Both the position numbers and the translations under genes were made by a program. A DNA stretch of 63,743 nucleotides, the filler included, from Atractiella rhizophila (lineage: Eukaryota), in assembly GCA_021432655.1 (NCBI GenBank). It is 3 parts of 3 records of this genome, joined end to end, with 100 filler letters (N's around TTAATTAATTAA, not from the genome) between each part and the next. Parts side by side here need not be neighbours in the genome. Positions count along the whole stretch, not along the records: positions 58,414 to 63,743 come from MU271799.1; 2 more parts are not named here. One strand, given 5' to 3'. This document shows, piece by piece, positions 3,017-63,743 of the stretch (position 1 is the first letter of the stretch; every line of letters starts with the position of its first letter). The notes under the pieces were generated by a model that did no database searches, had not been told where the DNA came from, and was given only the letters and a program-made list of their open reading frames with translations.

Positions 3017-3595
3017 TTAATTAGAATGTGACCTCAACACGGTCGTTCCTCCGGGGGCGATATCGAAGGTGGACGACTCTTGGCTATTCACCTGAAGTCG
3101 TGGAGGACTAATCTTCTTTGGTCGTTCAGCACGCGTCCTCTTCTTTCGCGGTTCCTCAATCCAACTAGCATTTTGACGAAGGAGGTTTTTCTGAATGACT
3201 TTATAGGCAAGGATGCAGCCTTCTCTCGTCATCGGATCCTGTGGCACTTGAAAGCAGTAGACGTCTTTTTCATCCACCAATTTTTCCGTGACAACGCGCT
3301 GACAATCTTGCGCCATCCGAGCAGACAGAAGTCCAGCAGGCTCTCGGACTCTTTGATCTTTCAGCCAAGCACGCAATGGTTTACTCTACCAAGAAAATCA
3401 ACCCAGGCACGTGATTGTACGAGTTTCCAGTCCACTTACCCAAAGATGGCTTCCATTCAACGCGCTCACGGCATATTCAGCATCCGTGGCACGAACAAAT
3501 GTGACCACACATGTTTGGAGCGGCTGCACTGTGCGCTCCCAATACTGCTTCTTGACTGCCCTTTCATAGATAAATCTTCGACAGAGTTCTCGTCT
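3017..3595 (-). CDS. Possible RRM-containing protein, 3' part only (5' part unclear, runs toward the gap)
   Basis: Splicing across a GTAAGT..TAG intron gives TCVVTFVRATDAEYAVSALNGSHLW|SKPLRAWLK, which resembles the beta3-alpha2-beta4 end of an RRM. Confidence 0.35.
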
Positions 3596-3787
3596 GCGGC
3601 GTCTTGGTTAAAACTCTACCATGTCAACTCTGGGGTATCTTGACTGTACGGACCCACTCGGAAAGCCTGGGAAAGTACGTCCGAGACTGCTTAAACCTCG
3701 TCGTGCCATCGGCACAAGCTTTTGTAAGGGTACTGCCGCTTTCCTCTGAAGCTTTAGCGGAACGCTGCATGTAAGCTTTAGATGCTA

Positions 3788-3812
3788 NNNNNNNNNNNNN
3801 NNNNNNNNNNNN
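3788..3812. other. Assembly gap, 25 N
   Basis: N run seen directly. Confidence 1.
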
Positions 3813-3904
3813 ATGTCCCAAGAGGCTTATGTTACTGTGTTTTCCATGCTTGGATGAGGAAAAGGAGGCGGACGTTACGCATAGGGTAGTGAAGGCGGGT
3901 AAGG

Positions 3905-4429
3905 AGTTGAGGACGTTATAGGCGAGGTTGAGGAGAGACAGGAAGAGGGAGAAGCGAAGGGGAGAAGTGGCGAAGGTCATAAAAACAAAACTCAGGGAAG
4001 AGCTAGAGCTAGAGAAGAGGTCGCAACCAGTAAACTTAACGATGATAACTTTCCCATCCTGACCACCCTCCGTAAACCAACTCTTATTCTCCTCCTACCA
4101 CCGCCTCTAACTCTACCTCCTCCGAGTAGGGGAACAACTCCACCGTTGTAACGACAGTAAGGTTAGAGTTGTACATGTGTTCCGTTGTATCTACTAAGTG
4201 CTTGGAACGTAGGTGACGAGGAAGTTGAGGTCGCGGAAAGCTACACGGCGGACGTGTGGTGGCTGCTTTCACCCACTAACATCGTTGATGGTTAGTTAGT
4301 TAGTTGCTAACGAAGACATTTGATCTCCTCTCCTCATACTGTATCTACATCTTTTGACGTCTCTGTGTGGAAAACCCACTCTTTGACCTGTCGAGCGCGG
4401 AGGGTAACGCCTCCCTCCTCGCCACCGTA
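3905..4429. CDS. Small 3-exon gene readable only by reversing the + strand without complementing; Mrx7-like N-terminus
   Basis: The reverse read from 4429 gives MPPLLPPQWEARAVQFLTQK|LLQSPTFVGGVQAAHRKALELKEQWMQ|AMLPPQQGDEPPPSQSPPPSSSYSQ..., with GTGTGT..TAG and GTTCGT..CAG introns. The Mrx7 resemblance is from memory of the LLxSPxFxxxVxxxHxK motif. Confidence 0.7.
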
Positions 4430-4751
4430 GGAAGGAAGAGGAACGTTTAGGGACGCTGAGGACTAGTGGATATAGTGGATATAGCTAACCATGGAGTTGC
4501 GGGAGAGTAGGCGTATTCATACTAGCTTGAACAACCTACAACCAACGAACGACGACGAACGGTCGACGAAGGGCGTCTGGCTCAGTTAATACCAACCCAA
4601 CTTTTTGCTGCTGCGTCCGCACCTGGAACTGCCGGGTTAGAGTGAGGAAGGTATAGCTATATTGACTCAATATGTAAGGAAGTTATAGGAGGTTCATTCG
4701 TCGGACGCGATATCAGATTTTTCATCTTGACTCAAAGCAACGGAACGGTCG

Positions 4752-5058
4752 TACGCTGCGCCAGGGGGTTCGAGGGAGTTGGAGCAGGGATTGCCGGGAG
4801 AGTGGGCGTTCGGGTTCAAGTGCGAGGGGTCCTTGGGTGTCTCGCACCTTTCGCAGATAGAAGGTCTGCAGGCAGAAGAGGGAGAAAGAAGGGGAAAGGA
4901 CAAGATTACATTCCCAAGTCTAGGCAGGGGGGTCCTCCAGTCACCCAAGAGTCCAGCACACAGTCGCGGAGGGATGCAACTCTAGCCAGCTCCTAAACCA
5001 CAGCCCTAACCCTTACCTCCCTTCCCGCTCAACCTCATCACTGCCCTCAGTCATAACT
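4752..5058. CDS. Small 2-exon hypothetical protein readable only on the un-reversed complement
   Basis: The complement read left to right gives MRRGPPSSLNLVPNGPLTRKPKFTLPRNPQSVESVYLPD|IRPPRRSVGSQVVCQRLPTLRSVEDLVSGLGMEGRASWSSDGSQY*, with a GTCCGT..CTAAT..CAG intron. Confidence 0.65.
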
Positions 5059-8000
5059 CGAATCGTGACGAATTTCTTGCCACCTCCTTACCCTCTCCCT
5101 TCCTCCTACCCACACAGGCTAGGAAAACGACCACTCAAGCACTTTCACCCTCCTACACCACGACACCACACGATCTGCAACAACTAGTTACGATAGTATG
5201 TTCAGCAAGAAAGCGCTAAAAGGTAGCGATATTGCGTGCCGCTAAGTACGTACTCCTTCTCTTCATAGCTTCGCGCGTAGACTGCAGGAAATCTGTCATT
5301 AGTAGTCAGCACCTACCTTTCGTCATCGCTTTCGGAAGAAACTCCGAATAGGAGTTAGATGAGTTTTGACGGTAGCTGTCTATCATGCCCTATCTCCTCT
5401 ACTAAGTCTTAACACAGTCAAGATACACCGAATAAAGGGCAGTACCTGTTAGAGGTATATTCGAGCACTGGTTTCTTTTTCTTTTACCCTAGAGTTTCGT
5501 ATCTTTTATGTGCTATTCTCACGGCAACTCGTCAGCTAGGGGGACACCAACAGAGTAGGAGCAAGTCCCTTATACTTGTGCTGACGGGGCTTGCACGAAA
5601 GGTAAAGTTTCTTCAGATTATTTTCTCTACTGCTAGCTGAAACGCACTGGAGGGTTATCGTTTGCTTACCTCCGGTTCGTCGCACATTGGGTAGTGTAGC
5701 CGGTCTAAGTTGTCAAAGAAGGTTGTTTTGACCTCCTTCTTTTGTTACCTTGGTAGTTCCCTATCACCTACATTAGACGAACAAGGAAGGATGCAATCTT
5801 GCTTTGCCAATAAGTCACACTTTTGTTTAGACAAAAATTTTCCATGAGCGTCGTTATTGAAAGGACGAATTGCGGAGGGCTTAAAAGCAGGTAGGTTAGG
5901 GAGGTAATAGCTTCCCTACAACCAATTTTTTTTTCCTGTGTAAGATAACACGTTATGGATTCCAGAACAGTCGCGGTAATCTTACGGGGTTTGCTACTGT
6001 TGTTTCCTCCGGAAAGCTAAAGTCACTGTTTGCTAAGGCATGAAACAACGCAAGCCCTTCTTCGCACAGTTTTGCCTTAAGTTAATATTTGGTGTAACGA
6101 GGGAACCCGACTTTCTTTCCTTCGGTCTTTGTTCACTGTAGCACCTAGTGGGTTTATTAGTGTTAAGGCATGACCGTTGATTTTCACGGAATGACAGAGA
6201 GCTGAATATTACTTTCCATCGTCAACAGTTTTCTTCTCTGTATATCACTAGGAAAAGGTGGGTGGCTTTGGCTAGCTAGCTAGTCGTACATACATGGAGA
6301 GGGAGGGAGAAACCTGGAACTGTGTAAAACCCATGAGTGTAGCGAACAGTTAACGAGACTCCGTAAGAGAACTCGATAAGACTTCATAAAATTCGGTCGT
6401 AAAAGTCATTACTTCTCCTAGCCCCCCTGTCCCAACAACCTGTCGAGAGCTTCTCCTAGTATGGTGCCGTAGAAAGGGATGTCGGTTTCTCCACTCTCTT
6501 ATCCTCCTTGTAGTATCTCGCCCTGATCACTAGGAAAACCTAAGACTCCTTTCCCCTCCCTTTCCCTTTCGCCAAACAGACTTCTCCAGGAGTCATCATC
6601 TTAAAAGGCCCGCCTATCGTGTGGAGGGAACTTCCTTGTTGCTGTAAATAAAGTGTTTGGTGGTTCCGCCTAAATAATGACGAGGAATTCCAGACAGGGA
6701 GTTGCGGGGAGTGTATTTTTATGGTTCTTTTTGTTTGGATCCAGCGTCGGAGAAGGAGTGGAGACGGCATCCGTAAGAAAAGCTTGCTTCGGCGATGATA
6801 AGATCACGCTTAAGATAACGAGGTCTCTCTACACAGGAGAGATCGAGCAGAAGTTTCTGGTGGATGAACTTGTTAAACCATTACTTTCTTTTTTTCGAAA
6901 ATCTGTCGCGTTTCAGTATTCAAAGCCCGAGCTTCTCATCAGGTTTGGACGAAATCGATCAGCTGTGGTTATCAGTGGATGGTTAAAAAGAAGCGAATGT
7001 CGCATTGCCTATGTGTTCAGGCGGCATGAATAAAGAAAGAGAAGCATCAAAGAGTGTTGGACGCAGAATGGTGGCGCGTCTACAGCCGCCCCTTCACTCT
7101 GTATAGTGACATGCCTGGTGGAAGGGTTGGATTTCGTGTTCAACATGGAAGCGAATATCATCCTGTCTATGATCCGTACCTTTATACCCTGTTACCGGAA
7201 CCCCTCAGCTGAATGGCCAACTATGATCACGATTGAGTTCTCTTCTCAATCTTTGTGCGTTGCGAGGCCCATCAGTCTTTTCCTTTCCTCGGATCTTCAC
7301 CCTCACATACCATAATAGCATTCGGTTGACTTTTGACAATTTTACCCGTGAAGCACTTCGAACGATGGCTGCGTACAATTCTATTACGACTTTTTGAAAT
7401 CAGTGACATTTTTAAAGAAGAGATTACTGCGTTGAAGGAAAGGCATCAAAGCGAATGCCAGCAGGATATGCAGATTTCAAGAACGTCAGTTTGTTCAGTC
7501 GTTAAATATCGTGATAACGACCGGTTCCGTCAAGTTCCCTGCTCGGCTGAGCCGACTTAAAGTGCGCATGCGCCGTGACGGAGTTCAGCATTAAATAATT
7601 GGAGATGTTGAGGAGATAATGTTCAATAATTCGGCCGTTCGCGCTTGCATGGCTTCTGGCTTACAAAAGGATCATCCTACCCTGACAATGGGAATCCAGT
7701 TTCACGCCTATGCTCTTCCCTTGTGGGTTGCAGTGACTCTTTGCAAATTCTTGTTCAGTGGACAATGGAACGATGTGTTCGTCGTGCTCATCGTGCTCGA
7801 GTCCGCCGAGTTGAGGAATTCTTGTTGTTTACGAGGAAGCGAGCTTGGCGGAACGCCTCCTCTGACGAATCTCTTCTCGGTGGATATCCGCCGAGCAGAA
7901 AGGATCCCGTCAATAATGCTAATACCTGTTCTCGATTTCGAGAACATTTTCGTGACCTGAGTTGGCACACAGAGTTCTAAAATATCTACAAACCTTTTCA

Positions 8001-29190: not shown

Positions 29191-29290
29191 NNNNNNNNNN
29201 NNNNNNNNNNNNNNNNNNNNNNNNNNNNNNNNNNTTAATTAATTAANNNNNNNNNNNNNNNNNNNNNNNNNNNNNNNNNNNNNNNNNNNN
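29191..29290. other. Scaffold join: 44 N + TTAATTAATTAA + 44 N
   Basis: A six-frame-stop spacer sits at 29235-29246 and genes on both sides are truncated. Confidence 0.97.
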
Positions 29291-58313: not shown

Positions 58314-58413
58314 NNNNNNNNNNNNNNNNNNNNNNNNNNNNNNNNNNNNNNNNNNNNTTAATTAATTAANNNNNNNNNNNNNNNNNNNNNNNNNNNNNNN
58401 NNNNNNNNNNNNN
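58314..58413. other. Scaffold join: 44 N + TTAATTAATTAA + 44 N
   Basis: Spacer at 58358-58369; same layout as the join at 29191. Confidence 0.97.
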
Positions 58414-58442: not shown

Positions 58443-59322
58443 TTAATCAAAGAAATCGTCGTCTTCGGGGAGGTTGAGCTCCCGTGCGTCGACTTCTTTG
58501 TTGTCCTTGCGGTTGTCATCAGTATCTGAAGTGTTCTTCTTCTTGAGGTCCAGATTCTGCTCCGGTTCCTTACTCATATTGCCTTTCTTCATCTCATCCT
58601 GGACCCAAGCTCGCACCCAAGTCCTAACCTGGTCCGAATCCTTGCATTTGATCGGTGGCGGGTGTTGGAGGACTTCGGGCAGCGGAGAAGGATGTGGTAC
58701 GTAGATGCTTGAAGGGAAGAGAGAGACATATTTTCGCTCAGATGGATAGTTCTGCCATAAAAACCTTTTAGCCTTACACTGACGTAGAGGCAGAAGAGGA
58801 ATACCGTACTAGGACGTAGTTGAGGTCGATGCGAAGACGAAGTAGCTCTTCCTCGCCCTTTGTGTGCTTTATCTTGCGGATGAGTTTCTGCCGCTCTATT
58901 TAATGTCATCAGCACCAGTACCCTGGCGATCTTTGGAATTCCTGTACCAAAAAATCTAACACCTGGATATGATGTCAGATCGTCATTCAAGTTCCAGCAA
59001 AAATGGCCTGCGACGGGTTTAGGGTTGCGAACCTTTATACACATCGTCATTCTTCTCTGCAGTTTTGGCGGTCTGCGCTGCAGCAAGTTCGGCCTCCAAT
59101 GCTTTTAAATTTGCTTCATGCTGAGTCTTAGCCTGTGAGTCTCCTTCCTGGACAATGCAACGTTAGCATTGACAGACACAAAATGGAACAGAGACATGCC
59201 TTTGCAAGCAGACGCTTCGCTTGTCGAATGTTGGCTTTCAGGCGAGAAATGGACGGTTTCGTTCGCTTATTTGGCAATTCGGCATCCTGTGAGCTCTGTT
59301 CTTCTCCCCTTTTCCTCTTCAT
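58443..59322 (-). CDS. EFG1: rRNA-processing protein Efg1
   Basis: Contains SISRLKANIRQAKRLLAK, VRFF|ERQKLIRKIK, LRIDLNYV, KYVSLFP and the acidic end EDDDFFD*. Confidence 0.8.
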
Positions 59323-59787
59323 GGCTCCTCGTCACCTGGCAGTGGACTTTAGTCACTCCACAACAAAGGGAGCAAAAAGTTAGCGAACTGTGGATCGAAG
59401 GCCCGCTTTCCAATAGATTGGCACCGCAAACTGCCAACATCGACGACGGCTCTCGCCCCAGAATCAGCGGGAGTCCTCTTAGCTGTGTGTTGTTCGAACA
59501 GATTATATCAATCTAGGCGTTATTTCGCCTAACTTCGTTCTTTGGATTTTATAACTTATCACGCTCGATACCCTCGACTCTTTCTTTCTGCTTGTTCTCT
59601 CGGCTGGTCAACTTCCACCGTGTATCAGCGCTTCGGCTTCCTTCTCGCTGTTGATCCTACTTCGACTCTCTTGTTACTTCGTTTACACGTCTATTCCGAA
59701 TCGCTATCGAAACAAACTCTGCGAACTCCCTCGTAGCTGCACCTCGTGACCACACCTTCTGTCTCAGTGTCTCAGTAGAGCATCACA

Positions 59788-62276
59788 ATGGCGGCCATCC
59801 CAGGCGACCCAGAGGTGACTTGTAACCCAAGGACGCTCTTCAGCACCTCTACAACCCTCATCCAGACCACAACCACCATCTTCGGGCTTGAGTTCCCTAC
59901 CGTGAGTGGTTCCTTGCCCGGTCAGAATGGGTCATGATTTCGTTTCGCTCGCTTAGGTTATCACCTCTACCATCCGTGTTCCCACTTCTACCGTCTTCCA
60001 GACCTGTGAGTGCTCTCCTGACTGCTTTGAGGGTTCGTGGCTAACTGGAGGAATCAAGGTCCTCTCACGACTTCTTCAACCTCTTCAACCTCAACCACAA
60101 CTGGTACCACGACCACAACGGGTACTACGACTTCCACTTCCTCCACTACGGTGAGCTCTTCTTCGAGTTTTCGTCCCTCTTCCCCACTGTGCCCGGCAAG
60201 GAAGTTGGCTGGCTCCACTGGGGGGTGTATTTTCTTTTTCGTGATTCTTTGTCGGCTTTCTTTGTTCTCGTGCTTGTGCACCATGCGGTGAATGGTCCCC
60301 CGCTTCAACGTCTTGGAATCACATCATTGTGTTAGCATAATGTTGAGACATGCGCCAGAAGGATGTCTCAGCATCACGCTTGAAAGGGCAATTCTGCGCT
60401 GGTTGCTGGAAATTTCTTGATTTCAACAAAAGCAGGCGGTCTTTCGCATGCTTCCGTGGCCCATCAATAATAGCCGCATTTCCGGACCGTGTCCCTTTCA
60501 NNNNNNNNNNNNNNNNNNNNNNNNNNNNNNNNNNNNNNNNNNNNNNNNNNNNNNNNNNNNNNNNNNNNNNNNNNNNNNNNNNNNNNNNNNNNNNNNNNNN
60601 NNNNNNNNNNNNNNNNNNNNNNNNNNNNNNNNNNNNNNNNNNNNNNNNNNNNNNNTCCGTGACTGTGGTGTGACCCTCGCAGTAGGAGACTTCAGGGGGA
60701 GGCGACTGGGCTTGGAGAGCACAACGGACTACTAGGTACAGCGCCAGGAGGGTAGGAGCGCAAAGGCAAGGGCAAGGGCAAAGATAACCCTAGGGAGTGA
60801 GGACCCCCTCCTCCGTCACCAACTAGGTCTGCAAGGGATAACCCTGACCATCCGACAACTCACCTTCGCGCTTGTAGTGGGACTACCTTTCAGGACGCTA
60901 CTTTTAGTCCTTTCAGCTTTAACAAGCCGACGACAGGTAGCAAGCTGTGCCAGCCAGGTCCAACGTAACAGCTTCTGGCGCGGCCGACAGCCAGGGAAAC
61001 GAACAGTGGAAGTACCTTCCAGACCGGGGAGACTGCAACAACTAGTGACATTAGCGCTCCACGAGGTCCTTGGCCCTGCCCCTGTCCTCCGCCTCGCAAA
61101 GGGGCGGCAACAGGAACTGGAACTGACCGTCAACTAACTCGTCCAGCTTCCCGCCGGCCTACAACAGGACCCCACCAGGAGGAGGTGGTCGGCTGCGTAT
61201 CTTTTTCAGTAGGACGACTAATACAGGCGGTCGTATTCCTTATGGAAGCGGACTTATAGGAGGCCCACAGGAAGGTCGCCCTTCGCCTCCTCACAGTACC
61301 CCTCTCGGAACTACCGATACTCTCCTTAATAACATCATCTTTCGCCCCAAGCCACCTCGTCCAACTATTGCTCCTAGCATCAATGGCACCCTTACCCTCG
61401 AGCCAGGCGACGGTGGCATCTTCAGCAGAAGCAGAACGCGGTTTTGCAGGAGACCTCTTCCAGATGGACCAGGCTCCTTAACTTGACCGCGTCCAACCGC
61501 AACCGAGTACAAGCCACCGTACAACACGCTCCCCATCATTAGGAGGACTACGGAGCTTAAGGACGCCAAGACGTCGCTCAAAACGCTGGAGGAGAATAAG
61601 CGGCGTATTCGAGGTCGGTAGGGAGGTCGTTCTCGTCGTGGACACCGACGGGGTCTCGGTTTGGGTGAGACTAGGGGAGGCGGGTTGGGTCCTCCAGGTA
61701 GTAAAGGTCTCAGCTTAGCCAAACCTCGTCGTGGTACTAGTTGTCGCTTTTACAACCTGAGGGCGGACATGAAGAGGTCATAAAGCAGTAGGGAGAGAGA
61801 ACTGAAGAATGAGTAGTTGGTAGAGTTATAGTTAGGGTTGTGGTCTTAAGGCTAGTGCGGCGGTCGCTGGGGGTGCGGCTAGAAACGCGGTCATCTTTTT
61901 ACTTGAAGGCAGTAAGAAGGGAACCAATGACAATAATCCTTATGGTTCCCACCAGCAACACCTCCTACTGCACTTTCACCACCTCCACTGCCAACAGCGT
62001 CCTCCTCCTCATTACCACCAACACCTCCTACATCACCAACACGAGCTTCAACAGCAACAACTTCAGCTTGAGATAGAGTAGGGGTAAGACAGTCTTAGAG
62101 GAGGCTAGCTACGCGTGCCGATTTTCAATCTAGGAATGAGGAATTACGACGGTTCTTCAGCGGTGGGAGGGAGTATGAGGGGACCATTGAGGATCACTAA
62201 TCAGTTGTCGGAGGAGCCTTACGATGGGATTGCGAGCGAGGATGGTGGCGTTCCTCCTTCTTATCGAACAAACTGA
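59788..62276 (+). CDS. Ser/Thr-rich single-pass membrane protein (Mid2/Wsc-like architecture); its middle lies in the reversed block
   Basis: Thr-rich exons at 59788-60150. The reversed block gives a STSTTTTSS stalk, the TM GAKIGVGVAGGVIGILVLGLILRWL and a Gly/Pro tail. The normal-orientation end reads GPLRITNQLSEEPYDG..VPPSYRTN*. Confidence 0.75.
60501..60655. other. Assembly gap, 155 N
   Basis: N run seen directly. Confidence 1.
60656..62114. other. Block written in reversed (non-complemented) orientation
   Basis: The plain reverse read contains a CTGAC..TAG acceptor followed by about 470 codons (two 1-nt homopolymer slips) that fit the flanking gene. Confidence 0.95.
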
Positions 62277-63243
62277 CGTTGTTGTTATTCGTCTATTCCT
62301 CAATCAAGTTGACTTGCTCTTGAAGGTGTAATACATCGGTAGTACATGATGATGGGATATGTTCGTTTTTACTAAAAAAGCAAACGTCGCTTCAGCTTTG
62401 CGCAGGCACGGTTATTCCAGGTGTTCCCAGGTAACGGTACTGGGTCCACGTTTTCAGTGAAAACGGATGAGCGGATGACGAAGAAGGTTCATCCGATTCC
62501 AGCATTTCATACTCTTCCATCAGAGATTTCATCGATGATGCAGGTGTATTTGTCAGGTTAGAAAGGCGGAAGGAGGAAAAAGTCGGAATGGACAGGCGGC
62601 GAGCAGCGTGCAGCCACAGAAAGGTGGCTGGATGAAATAATAGGCACCATTTCAGACGCATGCTGCTTTCAACGCTCCACCGGTCCTGCATCCGAGAGCT
62701 GTTCTGGGCTCTGTTGGTCCGAGGCTTGTCGCTGCATGCTTCGGTTGAACGGAATGTGTGCTGTTGCTTGTGGCTGTCGGAGATCCTCACATTGAGTGTG
62801 TCGCTTGAGGGCAGTGAGTGGGCTGGATGATTGATTGAGTTCGATGGCCCTTTGTGATGCCCTGAGCAGGGATACCGAAGGGATGACCTGGGGATAACAA
62901 AGATGCAACAAAGATACGATCAATGATGGATATCGATGGATATTGACAACAATGTGACAACAATTGAGGCAACGAACAAAGCGAGGAAGAAAGCTCGCCC
63001 AATGGCCCGAAAGAGCGGAAAACGGATAAATTGGACAATTGATAAGAAAAAAGAAAGTTCAAGGTTAAACTCGGAGGCCAGACGTCCGGAAAGCAACGAG
63101 GTTCGAAAAACACATGAAAGCCGGAGGAACGACAAACGACGTGGGGGCAGGACATTTATAAAAGACCGACGCTCCTATCCTTCGCACTCCTTCCATCACC
63201 AGCCAGCCATCAGCAGAGGCAGCTACAGCGTATATCGTTCAGA

Positions 63244-63743
63244 ATGCCTTGTGTAGCCCCAAAGACTCAGTCCAGGCAGACCGCCACCGTCCCTGATCCA
63301 TTCTATGGTCATAAGGGCAAGTTTTTTATGCTTCCATTCTTCCTTCTTCTTTTCCCAATGTTGACTTCTTTCTTCCAGACATCGCTCTACTATCAGAGTT
63401 CGTCATCAACCAACTCTTCTCATCACCAGGGACGCCATCATCAGCTTTTTCCTCATCCGCCTCTTTCTCTTCGATGGCTTCACCGACCAAGGGTCGTTCA
63501 GGAGCTTCAACTCCCCTCCGGTCTTCGCGACCAGTGCCACGTCTAGGTGAATTCATCGTACGTCTTTCGCTGCTCATCTTTCCTGACGCGAGGCACGCAT
63601 GTTGACGCGAATTTGACGCACAGGCCTACTCGTTGTATCGCACGCGGTTAGCAGAGCCGATACTCTTCTCCGCCCTTCTCCTGCTACGGCGTTTGAAAAC
63701 CCTTTATCCGACGGCCCGCGGCACCCCCACTTCGCCCCATCGC
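63244..63743 (+). CDS. Pcl/Pho80-type cyclin-like protein, 3'-truncated by the window end
   Basis: DPFYGHK|DIALLSEFVINQLF..PRLGEFI|AYSLYRTRLAEPILFSALLLLRRLKTLYPTARG..HR; the first intron is GC-AG. Confidence 0.8.

Follow-up and report, generated by a model that had tools for sequence, protein, structure and literature searches.

The window examined here, a stretch of 63,743 nucleotides from Atractiella rhizophila, contains near its right end a gene whose middle is written backwards. Three short exons stand in ordinary orientation on the + strand, and the intron that follows them runs into a gap of N's. Beginning at the first base after this gap, 1471 nt have their base order reversed without being complemented, and their true reading runs from 62126 down to 60656; ordinary sequence then resumes at 62127 and holds the end of the last exon. 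Exons and edges are placed by contigs of four public runs of the organism, aligned to positions 58500-63743 at a likeness of at least 85%. Two of these, X1 and X2, are DNA runs from one sample and may hold the assembly's own source reads, which makes them independent of the assembler and not of the sample; the other two, X3 and X6, are runs with spliced, RNA-like contigs. The parts of the locus are as follows.

59788..59901, + strand: exon 1, 38 codons from the ATG at 59788; GT..AG joint 59901>59957 in X3 and X6
59957..60005, + strand: exon 2; joints 59901>59957 and 60005>60059 in X3 and X6
60059..60150, + strand: exon 3, Thr/Ser-rich; joint 60150>62127 in X6, and a loose contig end behind 60150 in X3
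60151..60500, + strand: 5' part of intron 3, left of the N gap
60501..60655, no strand: N gap of 155 letters, standing for a true missing stretch of about 249 nt
60656..62126, no strand: mirror-written block, recognized from reading frames, public contigs, two 30-letter ends and k-mer polarity
60656..62071, read 62071>60656, no strand: main part of exon 4, mirror-written, 1416 nt, its extent given by the length of an X6 contig
62072..62126, no strand: 3' end of intron 3, mirror-written; an X3 spliced contig enters the exon at 62071
62127..62276, + strand: end of exon 4, the last 49 codons and the stop TGA at 62274-62276, present in contigs of X1, X2, X3 and X6

The first sign of the reversal is an open frame that appears in no ordinary reading. 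Read backwards and uncomplemented, positions 60656-62114 contain 2, 13 and 19 stops in their three frames, and one stop-free run, the longest of this reading, spans 426 codons. The ordinary frames of the block stay open for at most 133 codons on the + strand and at most 152 on the reverse complement. For comparison, 244 control windows of 1471 nt each were drawn from 6701-58300, and in their two mirror readings the longest stop-free run never exceeded 197 codons (median 116). The original prediction that a coding block lies here in reversed, uncomplemented form thus agrees with a frame of 426 codons set against ceilings of 152 in the normal readings and 197 in the controls. The particulars that it quoted are likewise all present in the backward reading: a Ser/Thr-rich run, a membrane helix, a Gly/Pro-rich tail ending in ...SVVSVP, a CTGAC branch point and a ...GATAG acceptor. 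One might object that long open frames can arise in GC-rich DNA, and mirror frame 1 does remain open up to about 135 codons past the stretch in which a second frame change is placed (see below); however, 426 codons against at most 197 in 244 controls leaves chance with vanishingly little to recommend it. The same holds for an ordinary inversion, in which the block would be the reverse complement of the true sequence: the reverse-complement frames are open for no more than 152 codons, and the ends of the public contigs fit the reversed reading and not the reverse complement.

These contigs are the most direct evidence. No contig of any of the four runs (X1, X2, X3 and X6) matches positions 60600-61999 as written at a likeness of at least 85%. 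Zero depth of this kind counts as evidence only jointly with a contig that bridges the region, and one such contig exists: record 15 of X2, a DNA contig of 6621 nt, covers 59405-60500 and 62127-63743 and has 1720 other letters between them, where the window holds 1626 positions. In all four runs the match to the window resumes at 62127. In X1 and X3, the 30 letters that precede 62127 are exactly the window letters 60685>60656, and a spliced contig of X3 continues behind 60150 with exactly the 30 letters of 62071>62042. Both of these ends fit the reversed reading only, and neither the + strand, the reverse complement nor the complement. A contig of 1644 nt from the RNA-like run X6 spans the interval from 60150 to 62127 with 1416 letters, which is the length of 62071>60656. 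Of the block's 1471 letters, 60 are thus supported letter for letter, by two 30-letter contig ends, and the remainder is supported by lengths, open frame and polarity. Word sampling gives a similar picture. The share of sampled words of 60656-63743 found in X1 and X2, the best DNA runs, is 0.49, and 0.52 would be expected if only 62127-63743 existed as written; the runs X4, X5 and X7-X24 contain small shares of the sampled words and stood outside the contig alignment.

In the DNA and RNA of the organism, then, the string is un-mirrored, and at 60656-62126 the true sequence is found on neither strand of the record. We are left in very little doubt that the block is genuine genomic DNA of Atractiella rhizophila that was stored last base first, and that an assembly-software fault, not biology, is responsible. 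That an artefact is involved had been proposed from the outset, and both the bridging X2 contig with its other letters between 60500 and 62127 and the lack of a match to the block as deposited in all four runs speak for it. The position of the block next to the 155 N at 60501-60655 had also been pointed out. The contrary view, that DNA with a truly mirrored base order is present in the cell as written, has nothing in its favor beyond the presence of the block in the record. No recombination or replication step is known to reverse base order without complementing; moreover, the X2 DNA contig joins 60500 to 62127 through other letters, and contig ends and spliced RNA contigs carry the string un-mirrored. 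We consider the likelihood of such DNA negligible.

Un-mirroring the block restores one ordinary expressed gene made of three short exons, an intron that bears the gap and one long exon. The claim that the block supplies the missing middle of the gene starting at 59788 is supported by the joints in X3 and X6, by the reversed 30-letter end and by the 1416-letter match in length to X6. Exon 3 finishes at a codon edge and is followed by the donor GTGAGC. At the other end of the intron, mirror-written, lie the CTGAC branch point at about 62094>62090 and the ...GATAG acceptor, whose AG ends at 62072. Subtracting the 1471-nt block from the 1720 letters of the X2 contig puts the true missing stretch at about 249 nt, not 155; the start of this sequence is absent from the window. 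Intron 3 accordingly measures about 654 nt, with 350 written normally, about 249 missing and 55 mirrored. The coding sequence (exons 1-3, 62071>60656 and 62127-62273) amounts to 1818 nt or 606 codons. Its last junction differs from the one first proposed. The right edge of the block had been set at 62114, 12 nt short of the actual 62126: contigs match the window from 62127 on, and what precedes that position in them is 60656-60685 reversed. The GTGCC shared by the two sides, through which the join had been thought to pass, is a coincidence, the true junction being a plain abutment of 60656 with 62127. The mirror reading closes with a complete codon at ...SVVSVP, and NLGMRNYDG continues in frame from 62127. 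The residues IF that had been placed before NLGMRNYDG do not belong to the protein; SVVSVP directly precedes it, and positions 62115-62126 are mirrored intron end.

Within the un-mirrored exon 4, the reading frame changes twice. The exon opens in phase 0, in a Ser/Thr-rich frame that meets a stop after 87 codons. Frame +1, which includes the membrane helix, is open for 424 codons; at exon position 864, phase 0 becomes open once more and stays so as far as the end of the exon. Two homopolymer runs are the places of interest.

61896..61900, no strand: T5 run, site of the first frame change, between the Ser/Thr-rich part and the helix
61170..61173, no strand: C4 run, probable site of the second frame change, from stop maps, composition and a weak codon-usage signal

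The stop maps confine the second change to 61207-60799. Codon usage, a weak guide with 15 training ORFs and 5089 codons, puts it roughly at exon positions 960-1020, and the C4 run at 61170-61173 is probably where it lies. Our preferred explanation, in which we have reasonable though not complete confidence, is that the two changes compensate each other and are base-calling errors at the homopolymer runs. Two homopolymer indels had been part of the original prediction as well, and the T5 and C4 runs make them plausible. It could also be that the frame changes are real; the locus would then be a pseudogene that is transcribed, or its product would be short and end 87 codons into exon 4. In agreement with this, the 1416 letters of the X6 RNA contig equal the deposited part of the exon with no net difference in length, and no homologue fixes the frame, searches with the normal exons having come back empty. 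However, one +1 and one -1 error would likewise leave the net length unchanged, and both sites fall at homopolymer runs. The nearby record is error-prone as well, with single-base indels at 60222, 60297 and 60411 relative to X1, X2 and X3. Differences between the window and X1 and X2 lie at 60196, 60222 (+C), 60297 (-1) and 60411 (+G), and X3 shows the first three of these differences too (60196, 60222 and 60297); the left gap edge of the record, 60151-60500, is of poor quality. Finally, a frame of 424 codons and a clean helix that follows straight after a Ser/Thr-rich stalk argue for one continuous protein. Real frame changes are in our opinion unlikely, although they retain some weight, and base-calling errors are assumed in what follows.

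Under that assumption, the product would have about 606 amino acids, with an N-terminal side of 149 residues (56% Ser+Thr), one membrane helix and a tail of 434 residues. The tail is rich in Gly, Pro, Arg, Gln and Asn, and is long, disordered and of low complexity.

61825..61890, read 61890>61825, no strand: single membrane helix, by Kyte-Doolittle hydropathy

The helix peaks at 2.6 in the Kyte-Doolittle mean over 19 residues and is the sole stretch above 1.6. This build would suit a fungal surface or sensor protein whose stalk is glycosylated and whose tail lies in the cytoplasm. Proteins of the Mid2, Wsc and Skg6 type have the same arrangement, a Ser/Thr-rich N-terminal side and one helix with basic residues ahead of a long tail of low complexity. 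Unlike them, the present product has no evident N-terminal signal peptide: its first 40 residues contain no hydrophobic stretch and reach a maximum 10-residue hydropathy of 1.12, and the surface-protein reading therefore fits less well. A second difference is that the normally written exons lack matches to Pfam or to homologues. The three normally written exon pieces hit no Pfam family. A word-index homology search with exon 1 (59782-59901) returned no match, nor did one with 62115-62273 against longer proteins, a query that included 4 residues of mirrored intron. For the 49 C-terminal residues (62127-62273), a phmmer search of 1.84 billion representatives yielded no match at E values up to 0.001. 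ARAGORN found no tRNA in either reading of the window.

Support that does not depend on genes comes from the polarity of short words. A Markov model was trained on k-mers of the window itself, taken from both strands, and the likelihood of each piece as written was compared with that of the same piece reversed. When 500-nt windows are scored with leave-one-out training, the mean polarity is +7.5 (sd 6.3), and outside two stretches it never falls below -3.8. One of the two is the block: its five windows between 60751 and 61751 are all negative, with scores of -4.5 to -14.0. Two-fold testing gives -37 and -35 for the block as a whole and +33 (sd 13) and +30 (sd 8) for length-matched controls, with z values of -5.3 and -8.2; the flanks of the block are normal. 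The polarity of the block thus flips sign at about equal size, as expected of reversed DNA. The polarity change point near its right edge falls at 62111-62120, so that the method recovers the edge at 62126 to within 6 to 15 nt.

The other stretch of negative polarity lies near the left end of the window, directly to the right of a gap of 25 N at 3788-3812.

3813..6550, no strand: probable second mirror-written block, from k-mer polarity; right edge uncertain by about 150 nt

Polarity is negative here in 11 of 11 windows of 500 nt between 3751 and 6251. Scores of -62 and -65 are obtained for the stretch and of +64 and +55 for controls (z of -7.1 and -11.5), and the polarity change point of the stretch is at 6549-6557. 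Mirror and complement-only translations of 3813-6700 extend to 105 and 112 codons at the longest and reveal no convincing long gene. Comparison of the whole window reversed with the window itself by BLASTN gave no match at all, and hence no internal copy by which the second stretch could be confirmed. Judged by k-mer statistics, its sole basis, the sequence from 3813 to about 6550 is probably mirror-written too.

The placement of the two stretches bears on the origin of the fault. The window holds N runs at 3788-3812 (25), at 29191-29234, 29247-29290, 58314-58357 and 58370-58413 (44 each) and at 60501-60655 (155). The four runs of 44 belong to two linker joins, 29191-29290 and 58314-58413, each of them 100 nt long with stops in six frames and composed of 44 N, TTAATTAATTAA and another 44 N. 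The runs of 25 N and 155 N are the only true scaffold gaps in the window. To the right of each of them lies a stretch of reversed polarity, and no window of negative polarity lies beside either of the linker joins. The 155 N and the 1471-nt block together make 1626, near the true 1720, and this closeness fits a gap whose size had been estimated and which was then filled in part. We lean towards a partial gap-closing step as the one responsible. One could envision that a leftward extension carried the contig starting at 62127 into the gap, and that the added bases were written in the order of their discovery, or were complemented without being reversed; either slip would give the pattern observed. 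The reversed bases would then have been placed before the contig, and the 155 N kept for the rest that was left unfilled. The original prediction had named a long-read gap-filling error as by far the likeliest cause. Its gap-closing part is suggested by the position of the block, and nothing speaks in favor of the involvement of long reads.

The mirroring might instead have arisen in later handling of the record, as pieces were strung together with linkers or copied, given that the window was processed after assembly and carries two linker joins of 100 nt. We hold this to be quite improbable, since each of the two reversed stretches is immediately preceded by a true N gap and neither lies beside a linker, and since the N count plus the block (1626) approximates 1720 as a partly filled, size-estimated gap would. 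If partial gap closing was indeed at work, the fault may have been systematic, with every leftward gap extension in this assembly mirrored, a proposition for which we see a little more to say than against it. Should it hold, many partly closed gaps, and perhaps those of other genomes from the same pipeline, would carry kilobase blocks that cannot be read. Genes would be hidden and false ORFs seeded in public databases, and a k-mer polarity score would find all such blocks.

The fault invites analogies with two better-known phenomena. Misoriented (reverse-complemented) contigs and gap fills also stem from a software orientation fault beside a scaffold gap, break a gene model and form a block that is missing from the reads in the form given. 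In a misoriented contig, however, the DNA of the other strand is still true, and its genes are found by a six-frame or both-strand search; in the block described here neither strand is true, and normal searches do not see it. Mirror repeats, the homopurine/homopyrimidine tracts that form H-DNA, similarly stand in relation to their own reverse without complementing. They are short local symmetries with both arms in the genome. The block, in contrast, is 1.5 kb of unique coding sequence of which the record has the mirrored form only, and the reversed window has no match to the window as written. A literature search found no published description of a reversed-but-not-complemented assembly fault, a result that does not by itself show that there is none.

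Since neither strand is true, the usual checks fail to see a mirrored block. In the present case the gene is cut in the record to a stump of three exons, and the open frames that the block does offer, the longest of 152 codons, are spurious. A record with apparently two mirrored blocks, each to the right of an N gap, is probably in need of systematic repair, and a forward-versus-reversed k-mer score could be used to screen whole assemblies. The fault is of consequence for quality control, in this assembly and probably in others produced the same way. For the biology of Atractiella rhizophila the finding means little: the reversal conceals an ordinary gene that is expressed and encodes a single-pass membrane protein rich in Ser and Thr.

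The k-mer polarity score, which compares the likelihood of a stretch as written with that of the same stretch reversed under a Markov model of the window and is negative for reversed-like sequence, is reversed over a second region (-62 and -65, against +64 and +55 for the controls):

3813-~6550, reversed-polarity stretch; its left end is the base directly after the 25-N gap (3788-3812)

By its k-mer statistics, this is probably another mirror-written block, that is, one stored last base first without complementing. None of the readings of 3813-~6550 contained a long open frame. On the other side of the gap, the rise in polarity score ends about 200 nt before the 25 N, with a cumulative maximum at 3542-3605; the intervening stretch, 3540-3787, may be noise or a small mirrored piece, and is too short for the two to be separated.

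The left side of the 155-N gap, 60190-60500, is a stretch of poor quality. Set against this organism's public contigs, the window shows four differences there:

60196, G>C
60222, +C
60297, -1
60411, +G

In the contig comparison over 60190-60500, the RNA-like run X3 agrees with the DNA runs X1 and X2 at 60196, 60222 and 60297. Perhaps this stretch, too, is gap fill.

The Ser/Thr-rich membrane protein gene is flanked by other transcribed sequence, recognized by joints in RNA-like contigs:

58748/58751>58810, 58896>59031 and 59146>59199, upstream, in X3 and a second RNA-like run, X6
63315>63378 and 63557>63624, downstream, GT..AG, in X3

The upstream joints belong to a neighbouring transcript within 58748-59323; at 58896>59031, the X3 and X6 contigs carry 12 other letters in between. 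On the + strand, the skipped segments lack GT..AG ends, so the likely source of this transcript is either a gene on the minus strand or a divergent allele. The downstream gene, starting at ~63245, is strongly expressed, contig depth at the 63315-63624 joints being very high (~1700 in X3).

Both 100-nt spacers are six-frame-stop linkers:

29191-29290, 44 N + TTAATTAATTAA + 44 N
58314-58413, the same

The window therefore consists of three or more separate pieces:

1-29190
29291-58313
58414-end

Gene models must stop at the linkers, with no reading across them.
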